From positions 930,001 to 994,000 of the forward strand of contig AP026125.1 in the NCBI GenBank assembly GCA_030295235.1: 64,000 nt of DNA. The letters run 5' to 3'. Positions within the stretch are counted from its first letter, which is position 1, and each line of letters begins with the position of its first letter. The translations under genes and the position numbers were made by a program. Origin of the DNA: Fistulifera solaris. Its lineage: Eukaryota. Positions 28,410 through 58,424 of this stretch are shown piece after piece. Below the pieces are notes generated by a model, which saw nothing but the letters and a program-made list of their open reading frames with translations, was not told where the DNA came from and made no database searches.

Positions 28410-30128
28410 TTAGCATGACCACCATATCTGCAGGGCTGCGCGAATACCTGCTCGAACCGGCAAACGACACCGCCTGTTTTCTATTCCACCAGTAGATACG
28501 AGCACTCGACCTCGCGCGCCTTCAATTGAAATACCGCGCTGAATTTTACGGCGTGGGCGATAGTTGTCGGGGTGATTGTCAACGTAAAGAGCGGCGCCAC
28601 CGTGAAAATCCTCGCCACTCCCTTCTGATAGAAAGACAGTTGTTTGTATCGAAAACGAGGGATCTGCTTCCAAGTCGGCCAACAGATTGCAAACATCCCT
28701 CACCGGCTCTATGTTGAATGGCCAAGGAAGCGAATAGAGGGCCATGTCGTTCCGTCTTTCTGCCTTGTCCATCCAAAGCAGATAATTTGTACGATTCAGC
28801 AACTTTTCGAGTCGACTCGGAATTCGTCGGTCGAAAAGGCGAACTCCATTTCCGTCCATCGGTCCGACAGCGTTGACACGAAAAGCAACAGGTTGAATCT
28901 CTTGTGATACATTGTAGTGCGTCGACAGTAAATCGCGTAACTTGGTTACAACGGAGGGAACCATTGCTTGTAATAAGTCCACGTCGCGATGAATATCAAA
29001 ATGGTCGCCACCATGAGATATCAAATTTGCTCCCAACACACGAGCATCGAGCACTTCTTGATCTAAAATAAGATTGTCGTGAACTCCTCGAAAGCACAGT
29101 TTAGTAGCGGCTTTTGATGTCCTTCGTCCGGGTAGTACTGAACTGATACAGGATTGCGGAGCAATGCAAGAGGATGACGATGAAAGGGATTGTGTTGGCG
29201 CAGCGCACTCCATAAACCAAGAAGCTTGCACTCCACGCTCAATGAATGGTGCCAGAACGTTGATTTCTTCCGTCGACTTTGACTTCAAAAAGATATCGAC
29301 AATACTCTTCATCGACGGTATATGAAGAACGCCTCGGCTACAATCGACTTTGCTAGAAATTCTTAAAACCTCTTTGATAAAATCAATGAGATGAAACGGT
29401 CGTGAGTCTCTGTGCAAGATCGGGCACTCTTTTGCATGTACAAGCAGCAATTTTACATTCAGTATCTCCGACATGAGAGGATCTAATACGGGTCTTTCAA
29501 CGGCACTGTAATGAAAAATGGGTATCGTTTGGAGCATGATGCATATAAATGCGGTCACCACCATTAGAACGGCAAAACAGATGCGTCGGAAAGTCAAACT
29601 AGGTTGATGTCGTTCATTCGGATTCACCGGAATAAGCATTAAGTCGTCCTCGGGTACACCTTGTTCAAGATAGCGTCGCACTGCCCTCGCTATAGCATCG
29701 GCAGCAGCTTGTTCCTGTCGGCGCAACCAGAGATGCTCATCTTCATCACCGTGCCTATCGTTATTATTATTTGGTCGAGGTGGTGGTGGCAGGTCTCCAG
29801 CAGGAGGCTGCGGTGGATGTGATGTAGGTACGAGTCGTCCGAATTCATCGACGCGGGCATCGCCAATCTTGTGTTTCTGCATCAAATCATGGAGCTCGAG
29901 TCGACGTTTTCGATAGGCCCGCACCTGTTGCTGGTATCCGTCATTGGTGTTATCGGCTGGCAGATCCTTGCCCATGCAAAAGTCGGAAATGTCTTCATTG
30001 GTCAGGTTCTTTCGTTCCAAAAGGAGATGGGCGTCCAGTGAGTAATATTTGTAGCGATACAATTGCGAGGGCTCTTTCTTGCCGTCATGCGACCCCCCTT
30101 TTCTCCGCCGGGCAGAAGATGTTCTCAT
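28410..30128 (-). CDS. Type II membrane protein with OGFOD3-like 2OG-Fe(II) oxygenase fold, probably catalytically degenerate
   Basis: Single TM (ICFAVLMVVTAFICIML); C-terminal TTVFLS..EDFHGG..GRVLVSTGGIEN..V..GIR.ALQIWW resembles the P4H/OGFOD3 jelly-roll. Confidence 0.65.
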   Translation of the reverse strand: MRTSSARRRKGGSHDGKKEPSQLYRYKYYSLDAHLLLERKNLTNEDISDFCMGKDLPADNTNDGYQQQVRAYRKRRLELHDLMQKHKIGDARVDEFGRLVPTSHPPQPPAGDLPPPPRPNNNNDRHGDEDEHLWLRRQEQAAADAIARAVRRYLEQGVPEDDLMLIPVNPNERHQPSLTFRRICFAVLMVVTAFICIMLQTIPIFHYSAVERPVLDPLMSEILNVKLLLVHAKECPILHRDSRPFHLIDFIKEVLRISSKVDCSRGVLHIPSMKSIVDIFLKSKSTEEINVLAPFIERGVQASWFMECAAPTQSLSSSSSCIAPQSCISSVLPGRRTSKAATKLCFRGVHDNLILDQEVLDARVLGANLISHGGDHFDIHRDVDLLQAMVPSVVTKLRDLLSTHYNVSQEIQPVAFRVNAVGPMDGNGVRLFDRRIPSRLEKLLNRTNYLLWMDKAERRNDMALYSLPWPFNIEPVRDVCNLLADLEADPSFSIQTTVFLSEGSGEDFHGGAALYVDNHPDNYRPRRKIQRGISIEGARGRVLVSTGGIENRRCRLPVRAGIRAALQIWWSC

Positions 30129-30360: not shown

Positions 30361-32515
30361 CTCCAGATTTTCTGGAAGACACAAAGACCTTCTCCAGAAT
30401 TTCTGGACTATCCACAGAATTTCTGTATGACGATATCGCGAATTCCAGAATTTCTGGAATTTGCACAGAAACACTGTTTGATGAAAATTACCACGTCCAG
30501 ACTAATGTGAAACCACACAGAATTTCGGTATGATCCAAAACAACGAGGTCCAAAGTTATTTTGACGTGCACATGTTTTCTGTGAGATGGAAACATGGAAA
30601 CACCTGGTCCAGAATTTCTGGACCATCCACAGAATTTCTGTATGTCCATATCACAATTTCCAGAATTTCTGTATGACGAGATCGCGAATTCCAGAATTTC
30701 TGGAATTACCACGTCCAGACTAATGTGAAACCACACAGAATTTCGGTATGATCCAAAACAACGAGGTCCAATGTTATTTTGACGTGCACATGTTTTCTGT
30801 GAGATGGAAACATGGAAACACCTGGTCCAGAATTTCTGGACCATCCACAGAATTTCTGTATGACGATATCGCACTTTCCAGAATTTCTGTATGACGAGAT
30901 CGCGAATTCCAGAATTTCTGGAATTTGCACAGAAATGCTGTTTGATGAAAATTACCACGTCCAGACTAATGTGAAACGACACCGAATTTCGGTATGATCC
31001 AAAGCAACGAGGTCCAATGTTATTTTGACGCGCACATGTTTTCTGTGAGATGGAAACATGGAAACACCTGGTCCAGAATTTCTGGACCATCCACAGAATT
31101 TCTGTATGACGATATCGCGAATTCCAGAATTTCTGGAATTAGCACAGAAACGCTGTTTTATAAAATTTACCACGTCCAGACTAATGTGAAACGACACCGA
31201 ATATCGGGTTGATCCAAAACAACGAGGTCCTATGTTATTTTGACGCGCACATGTTTTCTGTGAGATGGAAACATGGAAACACCTGGTCCAGAATTTCTTG
31301 ACCATCCACAGAATTTCTGTATGACGATATCGCATTTTCCAGAATTTCTGGAATTTGCACAGAAATGCTGTTTGATGAAAATTACCACGTCCAGACTAAT
31401 GTGAAACGACACCGAATTTCGGTATGATCCAAAGCAACGAGGTCCAATGTTATTTTGACGCGCACATGTTTTCTGTGAGATGGAAACATGGAAACACCTG
31501 GTCCAGAATTTCTGGACCATCCACAGAATTTCTGTATGACGATATCGCGAATTCCAGAATTTCTGGAATTAGCACAGAAACGCTGTTTTATAAAATTTAC
31601 CACGTCCAGACTAATATGAAACGACGCCGAATATCGGGTTGATCCAAAACAACGAGGTCCAATGTTATTTTGACGCGCACATTTTTTCTGTGAGATGGAA
31701 ACATGGAAACACCTGGTCCAGAATTTCTTGACCATCCACAGAATTTCTGTATGACGATATCGCATTTTCCAGAATTTCTGGAATTAGCACAGAAACGCTG
31801 TTTTATAAAATTTACCACGTCCAGACTAATGTGAAACGACGCCGAATATCGGGTTGATCCAAAACAACGAGGCCCAAAGTTATTTTGACGCGCACATTTT
31901 TTCTGTGAGATGGAAACATGGAAACACCTGGTCCAGAATTTCTTGACCATCCACAGAATTTCTGTATGACGATATCGCATTTTCCAGAATTTCTGGAATT
32001 TGCACAGAAATGCTGTTTGATGAAAATTACCACGTCCAGACTAATGTGAAACGACACCGAATTTCGGTATGATCCAAAGCAACGAGGTCCAATGTTATTT
32101 TGACGCGCACATGTTTTCTGTGAGATGGAAACATGGAAACACCTGGTCCAGAATTTCTTGACCATCCACAGAATTTCTGAATGACGATATCGCATTTTCC
32201 AGAATTTCTGGAATTTGCACAGAAACGCTGTTTTATAAAAATTACCACGTCCAGACTAATGTGAAACGACACCGAATATCGGGTTGATCCAAAACAACGA
32301 GGTCCTATGTTATTTTGACGTCCACATGTTTTCTGTGAGATGGAAACACCTGGTCCAGAATTTCTTGACCATCCACAGAATTTCTGTATGACGATATCGC
32401 ACTTTCCAGAATTTCAGTTCTGTACACCTTACCAGTACGTATGATTAACCTCTACCAGAATCTCTGAATCGTTCCTGATAACTTACAAAGATTTTTTCCA
32501 GAATTTCTGGAATTT
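30361..32515. repeat. Higher-order tandem array, 215-bp unit x ~9.5, built from ~52-bp palindromic monomers
   Basis: ACCACGTCCAGACTAAT at ~30490, 30708, 30954, 31169, 31384, 31599, 31814, 32029, 32244; many CCAGAATTTCTGG palindromes. Confidence 0.97.
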
Positions 32516-32702: not shown

Positions 32703-33670
32703 ATGAACGCTTCGAGCTACACAAAGACAATTATGAGGTTACGCAGAGCGTTGGACCGAGTCCGCTTCATGGTACTTGCATTACCGCTCCTCCCTTTGCT
32801 CTTTGAAGCAGACTCCTCGCAGTATTATGGCAATCGGAGATTACAGGTCGCGTCAGAAACATTCCAACAGGTTCCGGTTGCATACAAAGATCAGTTCCCT
32901 TTGGATTCAACTGTTCATTGCATCGGTGGAACTTTTGGATTGTTCCATGAAAACGACTGGCTGTACCGTTCCTGTGAATTTCGCAACATTTGCTTCGACC
33001 TGAGCGCTCAAGAATTTGTCTTGTTTCCGTCGAAAGAAGAGCAGGAACTTGCAGAACTTCTCAAAACGAATCCAATAGTTTCTGTGTCGACAGTCAGTTC
33101 GCCGTCGTTTCAAGTTGCGCTTAGTGCAGTAGATCCTCCCGATCCGAGTCAGCTTGATGACCGAGCGAGAATGGAAGTGCACAAAAGAACTTATCGTGGT
33201 TTCCTCTGGTCAGAAACACGAAGGCCACCAAAGGATATTACGAACTCCCTGAATCGCATATTTTTGTCCCTTTCCAAGAAAGCCATCCGATGTCACCGGA
33301 TTCCCTCGTCAACAAAGATTTCCTTTCCTTGTTTACCCTACTTTACGAATTCGGACTGGAAGAAAAGAAGCCGATTTTCATCCGACATGGGACTCATCTT
33401 CCTCTTTGCGACAAAAAGTGTGAAATATTGCTAAAGACTCATTTGCAAATCGACGCTTCCAAACCGATCCTTTCCGGAATTGACCATCGATCTAGCGACT
33501 TAGTGTGCGCCAAGTATGGAGTCGCAGGACTAGGTATGCGTATGACAGGAACGCGTCCTGTTCGTGACAAGGATGGCTCGTGGTTATATACACATACCGT
33601 TGGACGCCATGCTACGAAACGGGCATTTCAGAAATACATGGAAACTTGGGAAAAGACAGCGCGGGATTGA
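32703..33670 (+). CDS. Secreted/membrane protein resembling the N-terminal part of GT61-like glycosyltransferases
   Basis: Hydrophobic anchor, RRLQ, VHCIG, YRSCEFRNICFD, VCAKYGVAGLG..HTVGR; indel between ORFs 32703-33434 and 33290-33670. Confidence 0.5.
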
Positions 33671-51817: not shown

Positions 51818-52687
51818 ATGAGACATATCGGAGCCTTGTTGACGATTGTACCTGTAGTACATGCATTTGTCCCTCTCATCGATGGCGGAACAGATATCCC
51901 AACATTCTACAAATCATGGTTTGACGACCAAATCGTGAAGCAAGCATCGACAGCTGTAGAAAAAGCCATTGCGGCGGGCAATAAGAAAATCGAAGTAAAC
52001 TTTCCAGCTGTTCCCAACGTGGAAGAAGCCAAGTTCGGAACCTCTTTGAACCAAAAATTCGGAACGACGGTCGTTGCCAGAGAACTCAAAATTGCGGGAG
52101 GATACACACCCGGTTCGGACATTGCCCGAAATCTGATTGCTTACAGCAATGTTTACTGGGCAAAGAAAATAGCACCCGCCGTCGGAGGAGGCTTACTGGG
52201 TGGGCGCCCAGTGACGGTCGTGACACCCGAGCAAGTGAACATAAAACAGATCCAGTCTCGTGGGGCTATGTCTCAGATTTTGTCATTGAAGATGAGTAAA
52301 GGCGTCGAAGTGAAACAAGGAGGGGCTCTAATAGCTATCAACCCTGGCGGTGAAGAAACTTGGGATCGCATTCAATCGGCGTTTGGCAATGGGTCGCCCA
52401 TGGTCGTACTCAACAACGCTTACTCGACAACCTACGGCTTGGGCAACAAACGAGGATACGAAGAAGCTTACTTTGTCAAACGGATATCCAAGGGCTGGAT
52501 CTTCCGTTGTTTCCCTGGCCCTTGGAAGGCGTATCTGGAGAAACCCGATGGAAGTTGTGAACTCTTGGAGACGTACTCTACGAAGCCGGAACTCAACGTC
52601 GTAGCAACACGTGTTCGCGATGAGTCATTTAAACGATATGCGATCAACAATGATCGATGGTTTCCGGGACAGGGTCAAAGACTCTAA
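51818..52687 (+). CDS. DUF1995-family plastid protein
   Basis: VHA-FVP presequence; IEVNFP, VVLN, YFVKRISKGWIFRCFPGPW. Confidence 0.75.
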   Translation: MRHIGALLTIVPVVHAFVPLIDGGTDIPTFYKSWFDDQIVKQASTAVEKAIAAGNKKIEVNFPAVPNVEEAKFGTSLNQKFGTTVVARELKIAGGYTPGSDIARNLIAYSNVYWAKKIAPAVGGGLLGGRPVTVVTPEQVNIKQIQSRGAMSQILSLKMSKGVEVKQGGALIAINPGGEETWDRIQSAFGNGSPMVVLNNAYSTTYGLGNKRGYEEAYFVKRISKGWIFRCFPGPWKAYLEKPDGSCELLETYSTKPELNVVATRVRDESFKRYAINNDRWFPGQGQRL

Positions 52688-52879
52688 ATCAATGCATCAA
52701 AATATTAGTGATGTCCCCTGTTGACGTTGTCGAGCTTGCCTAGATTACGTTTGAATGACTTTGTAGTCGTTCAATACCGTCGATTTCTCTAATTAAATTT
52801 GTTGTGTTATCTAGATTTTCATCTCTTTAATGATAAGACAAGTAACGAATAACGAGCACTATCAAGCCTAACCGCAATT

Positions 52880-53321
<442 letters not shown>

Positions 53322-53477
53322 TTCGAATTTTTAATGAATAAACAGCGGTAACAAGAGAAGGATGGATTACAAAAATCAATCAACGCTACCAATGAAATGC
53401 TGAACTTTTGTTACAGTATTTACCAGTATGTGTTGCATTGTTGCATTGGACCGAACGGACTACAATGTCTCTTCGTC

Positions 53478-53710
53478 TCCAGAAAAACTGGGCAAGTGCT
53501 ATCATGACACTCCCAGAAAATCTGGGAATGAGGTATTTTCACATATCCAGAAAACCTGGGTAAGTGGTATTATGGCGTTCCCAGAAAACCAGAGCATGTG
53601 GTACTTGCACGTATCCAGAAAACCTGGAGAAGTGACATCATTAGGTGATCAGAAAACCTGGGGGAGTGGTACAGTATTTGCTATTTGCACGTGTCCAGAA
53701 AACCGGGGCA
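53478..53710. repeat. 34-bp-period ladder of CCAGAAAA(C/T)CTGGG motifs
   Basis: Motif at 53479, 53513, 53547, 53581, 53615, 53649 and ~53695 with diverged 20-nt linkers. Confidence 0.9.
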
Positions 53711-53724
53711 GGAAATTTACCAGA

Positions 53725-54700
53725 TTCCAGAATTTCTGGAAAATGCACAAAATCATTGTGTGACGGAAAGCCCCGATCCCGAAATATCTGAAACGTGCAC
53801 CGAATCTCTGTGCCCACCCAATCACCTAATCCAAAATATTTGGAAGTCTCGCCGAGCGTCTGTACGACCCAATACCAGGGTACACCGAGTCCAGAATATC
53901 TGGACCTGCCACAGAATTTCTGTGTGACCGAAATACCGATCCCAGAATTTCTGGAATTAGAAAAAATGTTACTTTGAATCCGAAACACGGATCCCAAAAT
54001 TCCTGGAAAGTGCACAAAAGCTTTGTGCGACGCAGAGCACCTAATCCAAAATATCGGGAATTCTCAAAGAATGTCTGCACGACCTAAAACAGCGATTCCA
54101 GAACTTCTGGAAAATGCACAAAATCATTGTGTGACGGAAAGCCCCGATCCCGAAATATCTGAAACGTGCACCGAATCTCTGTGCCCACCCAATCACCTAA
54201 TCCAAAATATTTGGAAGTCTCGCCGAGCGTCTGTACGACCCAATACCAGGGTACACCGAGTCCAGAATATCTGGACCTGCCACAGAATTTCTGTGTGACC
54301 GAAATACCGATCCCAGAATTTCTGGAATTAGAAAAAATGTTACTTTGAATCCGAAACACGGATCCCAAAATTCCTGGAAAGTGCACAAAAGCTTTGTGCG
54401 ACGCAGAGCACCTAATCCAAAATATCGGGAATTCTCAAAGAATGTCTGCACGACCTAAAACAGCGATTCCAGAACTTCTGGAAAATACACAAAATCATTG
54501 TCTGACGAAAAGCCCCGATCCCGAAACATCTGAAACGTGCACCGAATCTCTGTGCCCACCCAATCACCTAATCCAAAATATCTGGAAGTCTCGCCGAGCG
54601 TCTGTACGACCCAATAGACCGAGTCCAGAATATCTGGACCTGTCACGGAATTTCTGTGTTTACGAGATGCCGATTCCAGAATTTCTGGAATTAGAAAAAA
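53725..54700. repeat. Higher-order tandem array, 371-bp unit x ~2.6 (seven ~52-bp palindromic monomers per unit)
   Basis: Unit starts at ~53725, 54096 and 54467; monomer starts at 53727, 53779, 53831, 53891, 53942, 53994, 54046. Confidence 0.97.
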
Positions 54701-54734
54701 TTATATTTTATACGTCCTTGGGACTACTACCGCA

Positions 54735-54860
54735 CCAGACAACCAGGGCATGTGCTATTTGCACTTGTCCAGAAAATCTGGGCATTTAGTACTTGTCCAG
54801 AAAATCTGGGGATGTGGCATTTTCACTTGCCCAGAATTTGGGCAGGTCACGCCCAGATTC
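54735..54860. repeat. Right-hand ladder of CCAGAAAATCTGGG motifs
   Basis: Motif at ~54735, 54769, 54797 and 54831, in the same orientation as the left ladder. Confidence 0.85.
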
Positions 54861-54945
54861 TTTCAAACGCAGTACGTATAACAATATTATCTTTTGTCTA
54901 TAAGTCTACAATAGCTAATAATTTCGGCAAGGAAAATAAAATCCC

Positions 54946-57900
54946 TCATTGGAAGAAGTACTTAGCAGATCGTACCTCACTGAGATCAAGGTCACCGCGC
55001 TCTGGAAGAGGTGGAAATTCTAGATCCGGATATCGCATTTTCCAGTCAGCTAAAAGGATAGAGTAAGCTACATGCAAGGCGTCGAATTCTGCAACATCAC
55101 AACGGGACATGACGTACCAAGTTGCTCTTCCAAGAGCGGCCTTTCATACAGTTCAACAAATGTATCTCGTAGCGCCATATTCATTTCATCTATGTCACAA
55201 GGGTGAGTCCAGAATGAGTCGTGGACAGCAGAAAAGCTAAGTCCACGTCGATCCATCTCGAGAGCAGTAAACAGCATATGAGAAGCGTCCAGTGAATGTA
55301 CAAAATTTGGTGGAAATGCTGACACTTGTCGACTTGAGTGCAAAGGCAAATCGTCATTGCTTTCGATCAGAGAAACAACTTGCATCAGCGTTACAACTTT
55401 GGATGACTTCTTTCGTCTGTATGGTTGAATTGCCGGTAACCCGATGGGTGAAATCCACGCCACAGGATAACCTAGTTGAGTGATCATCCGGGCACAAGTT
55501 GTAAGCCAATTCATCGTTTCTTTTGCTCCCGTAAATACTTGACCCATTACCTCCATCGTTACTCGTGCCAGATATCCACAAGCACGAAAAACTTCAAGAT
55601 TCATCTCATCGATATCACACCCGAGACTCTCCAGCTGAGGGCACGAAATAACAATAAGAACAAAATCGACATATGTAAATCAATCGCTTCGCGTTTATTA
55701 CCAACCTTCTCTTCAATTTTTTCCTGAATTTGTTGTCTAGCACCAATGTACGTTACCCCATACACACTGGTCATCACAGTTCTTTTGACAACTCCACGAT
55801 CAATCAAACCATCGACAAGCTTAGCAGCTCTGTTGTTCGCAAGAATTTTCTTTTGTTTCCTGGTAAGCGCCTCAACATCGCTAGTATCGAAATCAATCGT
55901 TTGCGAAGCTTCCTCAGCTACGCGCCGAATGACTTCAGTCATTACACCCGAGTACACATCCTGTGGCTTGTCGGTATTGCGAAGATTCACCGCCTTTCCT
56001 CCAACCGCATCTCGTCCTAGTGCTGCGTAATGCTGCAAGCCATTACAAGAGCCATCCATATGTACAGGCAAGTTACACATGTAGGATTCAGGATCTCCTG
56101 AATCTATCGCAGCAATAATTTCAGCACACGCAGCAAGTCCCTGGAAAGGATCGTCTAATGTCATCCACCATCGATCACCAGCAAACGGATCCTCGACAGA
56201 AGCTCGTACTTTATCAATATTTTCATCAATGTAGGCAGCTCGTTCTTCTAAAGTCACTTTGTCTTTACCCGCAAAATTGGCGAGATGTACTTTCAACCAA
56301 AAAAGACCCCTCGGCCCGAGCGGCTTAGCCTCTGCAAACTTTAGTAGACCACGACACAGATCCGACCCAACAATCGAAAGATGCGGCGTGATGGGGTAAA
56401 CACGACCACGGAAATCCATGTTGTAAGGGAAGTATATCTCTTTAAAATCTTTGAATTTGTCAGCCTGATCAAGCTTGAGAACAACTGAACATCTTAGAGA
56501 GACCAGGTCCTGCAAATATTGTTTGTGGTCAGCTCGCTATTCCATGGGATCAACAAGACTCATGAAGCACTTACCGAGTTTCTTTGGCGCATTCTATCGT
56601 ATCTGGCACGAGCTTCGCGGTAGGCTCGCATCTCAGAAATGTAGCTATCATACTCAGGATGCCCCTTTTCAAGCTTCTGAGTTGGCCGCTCTGGTCTAAT
56701 AGGCTCCGGAGGTACTTCAAAGTCTGTCTTAGACGGAATATCCCCAATAGCTATGTTCCGTGCCCAGCACTCCTCCGCCACCGACAAAATTCTCTTGTTG
56801 ATTACCCAAGGAATCTTTGAAAGCGAATTTAACCCATCGTACACAGTATTCAAATTTGCGTGATTAAGTGCCTCCTAAAGCATTGTTAGATCGACTCTCA
56901 GACAGAACGAGTCCCAACAGCGTGCTACATCACGTACCAGTTGAAGATCGCATCCATGATACCTTACGATATCACTTTTTAGCCACAGATAACCACCCTC
57001 TTTTGGTTTCGTCCACGGTTTTGGAGGTAAAATCATAGGCTTTTGCCTTGTCGTTGTTTGAGAGAAGCTTTGTAATCTATCGCTGATGACCATATTCCGA
57101 AGTTTCTCGTTGAGAGTTACATATGCTCGCGACTTGTCTTTCCTTGTCCATCTTTTCTCGAAAACAAAAGCTGGCTCACCTTTTCTACCACCGTCTTTAA
57201 CCGTTGCACAGTCAAGAAGAACTTTGAAAAGTGCCGCACCGAGTTGTATTTTATCGCGTTCCGTCCACTGCTCATCGTTTTCAAGAACTTGTCTGGCTCG
57301 CCAAATTGCGAACGACGCCAGTCTTTGGCTCTTAGGCTTGAACTCCTTTAATTCGTCTAGATAATTCTGAAGATGAGAAGTGGAATAAGTCCATCTTTTC
57401 GTAGGATCTTCCTCGGCTGCCTTTATCTTGCCTTCCCCTAAAAATCCACCGTCGCGCGCATTCGAACTATTTACATCGTCGTTTTCAGGCTCATCGTCAG
57501 TGGCTTCATCGTCTAGTATGTTTGACACATTCAGTACGGAAGCTCTGGCTTGTGACTCTTTATATCTCTGATGAAGAACTCTTTGAATAATGACTTCGTC
57601 TTCAACAGCTTGCCCTAACTGCCTCGCAATCACCGAGAAAGGAGTACCGTGTAGACTATTATTGCTGTTGGTCAACGTTTCCATGATTGCCGTGTGAGCA
57701 GCGATAACAGCCAGCTTTGCCGGTGGTAGCGTACAAAGAAATGGACCAAACCGTTGAGCTGATTTCGAAACATCGCCCTCCGACTTTTCCCGAAAAATGT
57801 AATCTTTTGTCTCTTTTCGATAGCATCTACCAGCGGTTGAAACCACCATAACACCTGGCGCTGAACCAAAGATAGACTAGAATAATCTTTCCTTTTTCTC

Positions 57901-58424
57901 GCGCTTTCAATGACTTTCTGGTATTTGAGTACAGCTTCTTGTTGCGCCTCACACTCTAGCCACAATTGCAACTCTTCGAGATTGTCCATGGACGGAGGTT
58001 TTTGAGGGTCGAATCGATTCAGCATTTCGGCGGGAGACAGCCCCAAATCAAGTGCACGACCATCATCCGCTGACTCTAACACGTCACTAACGTCACTATT
58101 CTCTGCTTCATAAGATACATCTTCGCCCAATTCTAAATCCAAAGTACGACCGCCCCACGAAATCGAATCCCGCTTCTGAAATTCTTTCCGATGCGGAAAC
58201 ATTTCCGCTATCGACTGGGCAGTAATATATTCCACACGTTCATCGACTTCATCATCCATATTATCTGTCGACGCCCAATGCGCCAAGACAGGCCGTGAAC
58301 TGAAATCGGTTTGCCGAAACGGCAAGGCCCGTTCGTTGACGGCGCGGCGCCTCCGCGAAGCTCCCAGCCGCCACAAGCGCACATGTTGCGCGGTCCGCCG
58401 CGATATCACAATGGCTGCTTGCAT
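54946..58424 (-). CDS. RPOT: Nuclear-encoded mitochondrial T7-type single-subunit RNA polymerase
   Basis: DFRGRVYP, PVHMDGSCNGLQHYAALGRD, RGVVKRTVMTSVYGVT, FPPNFVHSLDASH, VHDSFWTH, terminal KYFFQ; several introns and an indel near 57790. Confidence 0.96.

Follow-up and report, generated by a model that had tools for sequence, protein, structure and literature searches.

Satellites are known to contain short dyad symmetries (PMC5889037, a survey). Satellite and minisatellite DNA with higher-order repeats has head-to-tail monomers organized in higher-order units, a homogeneous interior with diverged edge copies, dyads of less than 10 bp per arm within the monomers, and a 'library' of monomer variants amplified differently by locus. 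The repeats analyzed here resemble that system in each of these respects. Unlike satellite blocks, they form arrays of 1-2 kb of ordinary G+C in gene-dense euchromatin between housekeeping genes and are not centromeric, and their 52-bp monomer, unlike that of typical satellites, is far below nucleosome length.

A second comparison is offered by the satellite-like repeats of Helentrons and MITEs documented in bivalves (Cg_HINE, PMC7492417; DTC84, PMC3879986). In these elements, the Helentrons being from oyster, short arrays are scattered in gene-rich DNA and clusters of related monomers are found at many loci, as in the present case. The flanking modules and termini that define Helentrons and MITEs, in contrast, were not found at the two loci inspected here.

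A third is quasi-palindrome template switching, which PMC8794818 describes as giving rise to perfect stems and to changes that look compensatory, and which PMC3820800 describes for yeast. Being a mutation mechanism and not a sequence family, it explains mirrored changes and the restoration of arms without selection. Intermediate and restored states inside both arrays fit such switching, which may play a role here.

Among the papers listed by literature searches, none describes a family of this kind in diatoms. In full-text searches, the 13-nt dyad was not found, and the 8-nt half of the first dyad (P1) combined with 'diatom' gave nothing relevant among the matches listed. Canonical heat-shock elements consist of alternating inverted 5-nt units in which inverted GAA/TTC triplets lie two bases apart, and diatoms have a very large HSF family. 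The P1 dyad likewise contains inverted GAA/TTC triplets, but in its core GAA and TTC are one base apart, not two; the resemblance was judged superficial and a heat-shock element was rejected.

Layout of the two arrays

The window, meaning the whole 64-kb stretch of DNA that was analyzed, is diatom nuclear DNA. Its open reading frames (ORFs) code for PPR repeats, a phage-type RNA polymerase, SF3b2-type domains, a DUF1995 protein, a light-harvesting protein and other housekeeping functions. The named homologues of the DUF1995 protein are all from diatoms (about 57-62% identity), and one further match reaches 98%. The features used below are listed by their position in the window.

28410..30128, minus strand: ORF of 572 aa without Pfam match, with array 1 from 234 bp upstream of its start and transcription directed away from the array
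30362..32415, no strand: array 1, same monomer family as array 2, 215-bp unit repeated about 9 times with a 430-bp double-unit pattern
32497..32511, no strand: solitary perfect P1 dyad just beyond array 1; the ORF starting at 32703 lies 192 bp downstream
32703..33434, plus strand: ORF of 243 aa without Pfam match, divergent from the 572-aa ORF
52880..53321, minus strand: dynein light chain (LC8) gene, two exons, start codon at 53321
53478..53722, no strand: 34-bp (68-bp) tandem repeat, left flank of array 2, about 7 units, from Tandem Repeats Finder (TRF)
53723..54701, no strand: array 2 of the family of about 52-bp monomers, from TRF, monomer cutting and alignment
54735..54850, no strand: same 34-bp repeat, right flank of array 2, about 3-4 units
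54946..55110, minus strand: last coding piece of the phage-type RNA polymerase gene, the 3' end of which bounds the repeat region on the right

For array 2, TRF returned a period of 371 bp with 2.7 copies, 96% matches and a score of 1804. The 371-bp unit comprises seven monomers (M1 to M7), and cutting at 52, 52, 60, 51, 52, 52 and 52 bp brought all monomers of the array into register, confirming the spacing given in the earlier note. Copy 1 extends from 53723 to 54093, copy 2 from 54094 to 54464 and a partial copy 3 from 54465 to 54701. One of 371 positions distinguishes copy 1 from copy 2, whereas the monomer types share 17-38 of 47 alignment columns; the structure is a tandem higher-order one and its duplication is very recent. 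Compared with copy 2, the partial copy at the edge has changes at 13 of 237 aligned positions as well as an 8-bp indel. Homogeneous interior copies next to a diverged edge copy are the usual satellite pattern and speak for the satellite reading preferred below.

The indel lies in M3, which measures 52 bp in the third copy and 60 bp in the others. As the last M4 of array 1 is likewise 52 bp instead of 60 bp, the final copy lacks the extra 8 bp in both arrays, as had been proposed from the letters. The closest monomer pairs within array 2 are M1/M6 (38 of 47 columns) and M3/M7 (36 of 47; both ungapped counts). These pairs do not suit a simple 4+3 scheme, and an origin of the seven-monomer unit by 4+3 was ruled out.

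In array 1, TRF found a period of 215 bp (7.2 copies, 93% matches), the unit being made up of monomers of 51, 52, 52 and 60 bp; this 215-bp array, at 30393-32415, is homologous to array 2. The early units of array 1 carry a 31-bp duplication that gave rise to hybrid dyads, their left arm being that of P1 and their right arm that of P2. The array is a patchwork in which identical monomers turn up in non-adjacent units, which indicates continuing exchange. By TRF, both arrays consist of head-to-tail tandem copies, as satellite and minisatellite DNA do.

The 29 distinct monomers of both arrays could be aligned without gaps over columns 1-47. Between 53883-53928 in array 2 and 31065-31110 in array 1, 40 of 46 positions are identical, so that the 60-51-52 block can indeed be aligned between the arrays; the closest monomers across the two arrays have 37 of 47 columns in common. 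Taken with array 2 copies that differ at a single position and with units of 215/430 bp versus 371 bp, this comparison of sequences supports the proposal that arrays 1 and 2 are separate amplifications of one monomer family.

The arrays are non-coding, because their periods of 371, 215 and 52 are not multiples of 3 and the frame shifts from copy to copy. ORFs across array 2 are read-through of the repeats, and a coding repeat was ruled out. A centromere was also rejected, on account of the location between housekeeping genes and an ordinary G+C (0.40-0.45 in the arrays vs 0.46).

Array 2 is embedded in a separate 34-bp repeat family that is present on both sides. The left and right flank repeats are in direct orientation (85% over 47 nt), and their dyad is related to the array dyads and shorter, with 4-bp arms and a 5-nt centre. 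Since the LC8 start codon at 53321 faces the repeats, the repeat region is upstream of LC8; the 34-bp repeats begin 157 bp and array 2 begins 402 bp upstream of this codon. Array 1 fills the spacer between the divergent 572-aa and 243-aa ORFs, ending 234 and 192 bp before their starts.

Conservation, decay and mirrored changes of the dyads

Each monomer contains two short dyads, first P1 (alignment columns 3-19) and then P2 (columns 23-39), both centred on one 11-nt palindromic core. The dyads are odd-length palindromes with one central base, spaced 20 and 31-32 bp from centre to centre (40 bp in the long monomer). In the 64-kb window, the 11-nt core pattern has 78 matches, against 0.87 expected, and the 15-nt P1 consensus with at most 2 mismatches has 36 matches, against 0.31 expected. 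All core and P1 matches fall inside the two intergenic repeat regions (36 of 36 for the near-matches to P1), and no solitary P1 site was found elsewhere in the 64 kb.

Many dyads are partly decayed. In the 371-bp unit, an uninterrupted stem of at least 5 bp is present in 7 of the 14 dyads (both of M1, P1 of M3, both of M4, P1 of M5 and P2 of M6); the other 7 are degraded. The edge copy of array 2 has two more arm-breaking changes, in P2 of M1 and of M4, and its M3 holds an uncompensated dyad with A opposite C. A G>T change that breaks P1 is carried by 5 of 10 copies of M1 in array 1. At two sites (P1 of M3 in array 2 and P2 of M3 in array 1), the edge copies hold an uncompensated intermediate and the interior copies a restored pair. 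Polymorphism inside the arrays thus cuts both ways, with restored pairs at two sites versus spread of a P1-breaking variant.

Averaged over pairs of the 11 monomer types, column identity is 0.48 in the linkers, 0.56 in P2 and 0.68 in P1. Free divergence of the linkers, as the earlier note had it, overstates this difference; they are less conserved than the dyads.

The mirrored changes on which that note had built its case are real. Columns 8/14 of P1 are G-C in 14 rows and A-T in 6, and columns 28/34 of P2 are G-C in 18 rows and A-T in 4. The double changes cited represent the same transition on both strands, at one hot arm position. In array 2 the left arm is altered at this position in 4 of 7 P1 and 3 of 7 P2 dyads; for the right arm the counts are 1 of 7 and 2 of 7, respectively. 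With the position altered so often, chance coincidence of both arms is not rare. The double changes of M1 and M6 are probably one event, as judged from their being the most similar monomers.

Covariation of the arms was assessed in three ways. Among the 29 distinct monomers, 69.6% of cells pair, compared with 64.7% in shuffles, and 29 cells are changed on both sides, compared with 16.1; both values exceed those of 500 out of 500 shuffles, and both are cell-based measures, which inflate with relatedness. The measures that are robust to relatedness gave 9 pairs changed on both sides versus 8.3 (223 of 500 shuffles as high) and 18 further pair types versus 20.1 (463 of 500 as high).

Column shuffles were then applied to a set of 11 monomer types, with one representative per type and Watson-Crick pairs only. 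Compensated cells numbered 11 versus 5.1 in shuffles (p about 0.003), 9 versus 4.4 when the two nearest duplicates were left out (p 0.01), and 6 versus 2.7 for the array 2 types alone (p 0.014). Nominal p values of the tests on monomer types ranged from 0.003 to 0.05.

Finally, unconstrained evolution from the consensus was simulated on a neighbour-joining tree of the 11 types under six settings. At a transition bias (kappa) of 1, 3.7 and 8, the simulations contained 5.2, 6.6 and 8.4 compensated cells, and the probability of 11 or more was 0.023, 0.085 and 0.22, respectively; with branch lengths multiplied by 1.3 it was 0.14-0.54. In run X1 (see below), 65 of 100 changed places are transitions, which puts the transition bias near 3.7. 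As the compensated cells lie within the tree simulations at a realistic transition bias, covariation of the dyad arms ceases to be secure when relatedness and mutation bias enter the model. Covariation beyond phylogeny had been named beforehand as the test on which the proposal could fail, and it did not hold securely. The number of paired cells behaved differently, at 114 of 176 versus 88-96 simulated (P about 0.002; 0.0000 to 0.0093 over the six settings). The idea that symmetry itself is maintained finds weak support: pairing is retained above the neutral level, and the excess of covariation falls within the tree simulations at a realistic transition bias. The dyads are conserved, whatever the cause, rather than covarying.

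Occurrence outside the two arrays

When 52700-55200 was looked up in public runs, it was partly present in seven rows and mostly present in two, and no row is recorded as RNA. Dispersal was measured from contigs of four public runs over 52600-55300, X1 and X2 being from a wetland metagenome. Summed contig depth on the consensus-like monomers was 758 in X1 and 842 in X2, versus about 13-54 in the unique flanks, so that contigs pile up on these monomers to 10-25 times the baseline in two runs. Aligned contig pieces numbered 188 (X1) and 204 (X2); many are only partial, and their loose ends agree with each other at 0.49-0.67. High depth together with disagreeing loose ends indicates that the monomer family is at many other places in that genome, and the other genomic copies are mostly within further arrays of diverged monomers. 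With two loci in the window and raised depth in two runs, the family occupies multiple loci, as satellite DNA does.

X1 and X2 also contain a second version of the genes flanking array 2, about 10% diverged. One contig of X1 passes over the repeat region, linking 53384 to 54893.

A scan of metagenomes for two P1-type dyads 32-47 nt apart yielded 80 loci. Following comparison with the monomer profile (nhmmer), none of the 80 belonged to the 52-bp family; the best score was 16.6 bits, and chance single hits in prokaryote loci reach 20.8 bits with the same profile. These metagenome loci are unrelated coding repeats and unrelated arrays that share the 13-nt dyad, and the ORFs in them are read-through of the repeats. 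When prokaryotes were scanned with the 15-nt P1 consensus, the outcome was single matches due to chance, at no fewer than 120 loci. The combined P1 and P2 pattern had 0 matches in prokaryote contigs and 0 in viral contigs.

Origin of the arrays and meaning of the dyads

The explanation we prefer, to which we give about an even chance of being correct, is that of a non-coding, dispersed satellite-type (minisatellite) family of a diatom with dyad symmetries. The basic monomer of about 52 bp would be a diverged dimer, both of its dyads carrying the same 11-nt core. Arrays would grow locally as higher-order units (371 bp; 215/430 bp) via unequal exchange or replication slippage, and concerted evolution would homogenize them. 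The shared core, occurring twice per monomer, may be the best substrate for conversion, so that the dyads would outlast the linkers, and hairpin-templated repair (quasi-palindrome template switching) could make the arms symmetrical again. We propose that recurrence of the core and such repair together keep the dyads better than the linkers; occasional mirrored double changes would then arise without selection on any product. Decay of half of the dyads in the 371-bp unit and the P1-breaking variant in half of the M1 copies of array 1 argue for this satellite reading. We infer the mechanism by conversion and template switching, as well as the absence of a dedicated RNA or protein partner.

Against a neutral origin stand the pairing above simulation, the nominally significant shuffles, the restored interior pairs, the near-integral helical spacing and the positions upstream of genes. 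The higher conservation of dyads than of linkers could equally reflect selection.

One selective explanation, which we regard as rather unlikely, is a putative protein-binding array in which the 11-17-nt palindromes would be sites for a dimeric DNA-binding protein. This might be a transcription factor or, in the manner of the CENP-B box, an architectural satellite-binding protein, with a role in regulation or chromatin organization. Perfect palindromes with a single central base are typical of dimer sites, and one core recurs in P1, P2 and, in reduced form, the 34-bp family. The spacings of 20 and 31-32 bp and the period of 52 bp correspond to about 2, 3 and 5 helical turns; all sites would hence share one face of the DNA, like cooperative protein-binding arrays. 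Conservation of the dyads above the linkers and pairing in excess of neutral simulations are as expected for such sites, and so is the placement of the repeats, 157-402 bp ahead of the LC8 start codon in one case and in the spacer of two divergent ORFs in the other. However, decay affects half the sites of the unit, a variant that destroys the site has reached 5 of 10 copies, and no solitary site was found near any other of the roughly 35 genes of the window. The near-identical 371-bp copies show growth by block duplication and not selection at the level of sites. Moreover, when one half-site of a homodimer changes, nothing calls for the other half to change likewise, so that the mirrored changes count against protein binding and not for it.

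It is less probable still, and in our view unlikely, that the arrays are central or subterminal repeats of a non-autonomous DNA transposon, Helitron/Helentron-like or MITE, the palindromes serving as recognition or hairpin signals of the mobilizing enzyme. Transposition would explain the dispersal of the family in many copies, array 2 splits another repeat (34 bp) in the way expected of an insertion, and the bivalve elements cited above provide a precedent. Yet blastn of the flanks of array 1 against those of array 2 found only dyads and chance matches of 10-17 nt, that is, no flanking module common to the two loci inspected, and no terminal inverted repeats were detected at these loci beyond the internal dyads. 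A linked Rep/helicase, transposase or recombinase had been suggested as a check; in this window, a Pfam scan of 41 ORFs found no transposase, Rep/helicase, integrase or reverse transcriptase. The disagreement among loose ends of the other genomic copies also speaks against a mobile unit.

Slightly less probable again, and improbable, is that selection acts on the dyads as DNA-level signals, such as cruciform or hairpin sites for a putative diatom protein that reads shape and not the identity of the bases. If true, this would explain why pairing is retained above the neutral level and why a change in one arm is at times matched in the other. As regulatory or boundary modules upstream of genes, the arrays would then form a lineage-specific class of cis-elements spread by tandem amplification.

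Folding was evaluated on single strands. Four of the 11 monomer types take a two-hairpin shape with z-scores of -3.9 to -6.0, a fifth scores -2.2, and the remaining six resemble shuffles; structure is not kept in all monomer types. Folded as RNA, the whole 371-bp unit reaches z = -3.77 (plus strand) and -2.47 (minus strand), low values that result from the palindromes themselves. No Rfam match at gathering score and no tRNA genes were found in the 64-kb window. RNA hairpins need a loop of at least 3 bases; in dyads with a single unpaired central base the inner pairs would have to open, and the geometry fits duplex DNA (dimer sites, cruciforms) better than an RNA hairpin. A structured RNA or small-RNA precursor, whose predicted monomer hairpins would be transcribed and processed to about 52 nt or smaller, is thus very improbable despite the folding of the unit and of four types and the nominal excess of mirrored double changes, an excess that is not significant in the tree-aware simulation at a realistic transition bias or in the relatedness-robust measures.

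On the present evidence, the arrays are a descriptive addition: a dispersed minisatellite family with dyads in a diatom. The repeat content of diatoms is little described. They also provide a small and clean case in which palindromic repeats seem to covary if relatedness, a transition hot spot and hairpin-templated mutation are left unmodelled. If the retained pairing is selected, the arrays would represent a new class of cis-element beside ordinary genes.

Surroundings of array 2

Array 2 of the 52-bp tandem repeat family (window positions 53723-54701, with a 371-bp unit of seven monomers of about 52 bp) lies between two blocks of a shorter tandem repeat, with a gene on either side, as follows.

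Features flanking array 2 (window positions)
52880-53321, minus strand: dynein light chain (LC8) gene, two exons with a short intron between them; Pfam Dynein_light is matched by each of the two ORF pieces
53478-53722: 34-bp (68-bp) tandem repeat left of array 2, in direct orientation relative to the right block
54735-54850: 34-bp (68-bp) tandem repeat right of array 2, in direct orientation relative to the left block
54946-58424, minus strand: phage-type (organellar) RNA polymerase gene, in at least five ORF pieces, presumably split by introns

The left and right 34-bp blocks match at 85% over 47 nt and form a family separate from array 2. A reduced dyad is present in every 34-bp unit, its arms 4 bp long and its centre 5 nt; inspection by eye shows an additional short dyad in the linker. 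The 34-bp array looks to be the older one, and to be either the site into which array 2 was inserted or the source from which it grew.

Second version of the locus

Contigs from two public wetland metagenome runs (X1 and X2) were placed on window positions 52600-55300. Both runs contain a second version of the genes flanking array 2, diverged by about 10%; at 54899-55300, for instance, 46 of 400 nt differ. In a single X1 contig, position 53384 is joined to 54893 and the whole repeat region is left out. The locus may thus exist in a second haplotype, or as a homeologue, that lacks array 2.

Dyads in metagenome contigs and in array 1

Each monomer of the family carries two short dyads, P1 and P2, with a common 11-nt core and centres 20 bp apart. 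Metagenome contigs were scanned for two P1-type dyads 32-47 nt apart. Seven of the contigs recovered (L145, L193, L147, L128, L157, L158 and L192) hold irregular non-coding arrays of 0.6-0.9 kb, crowded with 13-nt dyads in which two half-site types occur in all four combinations, and among which the P1 half-site is found with another central base; these arrays were rejected as members of the 52-bp family. Contig L176 (1255 nt) carries a 20-bp satellite, its unit consisting of the 13-nt dyad of P1 and a 7-nt linker; in the window's family, P1 and P2 are spaced by the same 20 bp.

The longest dyad of the family within the window belongs to array 1 (30362-32415, 215-bp unit), where P1 of the second monomer extends over 27 nt as a near-perfect palindrome with 89% complementarity (30438-30464 and its copies in the array).

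Hybrid dyads in early units of array 1 (left arm P1, right arm P2)
30659-30673: hybrid dyad
30877-30891: hybrid dyad

Both originated from a 31-bp duplication in these early units. The hybrids show that the two dyad types exchange through their common core.
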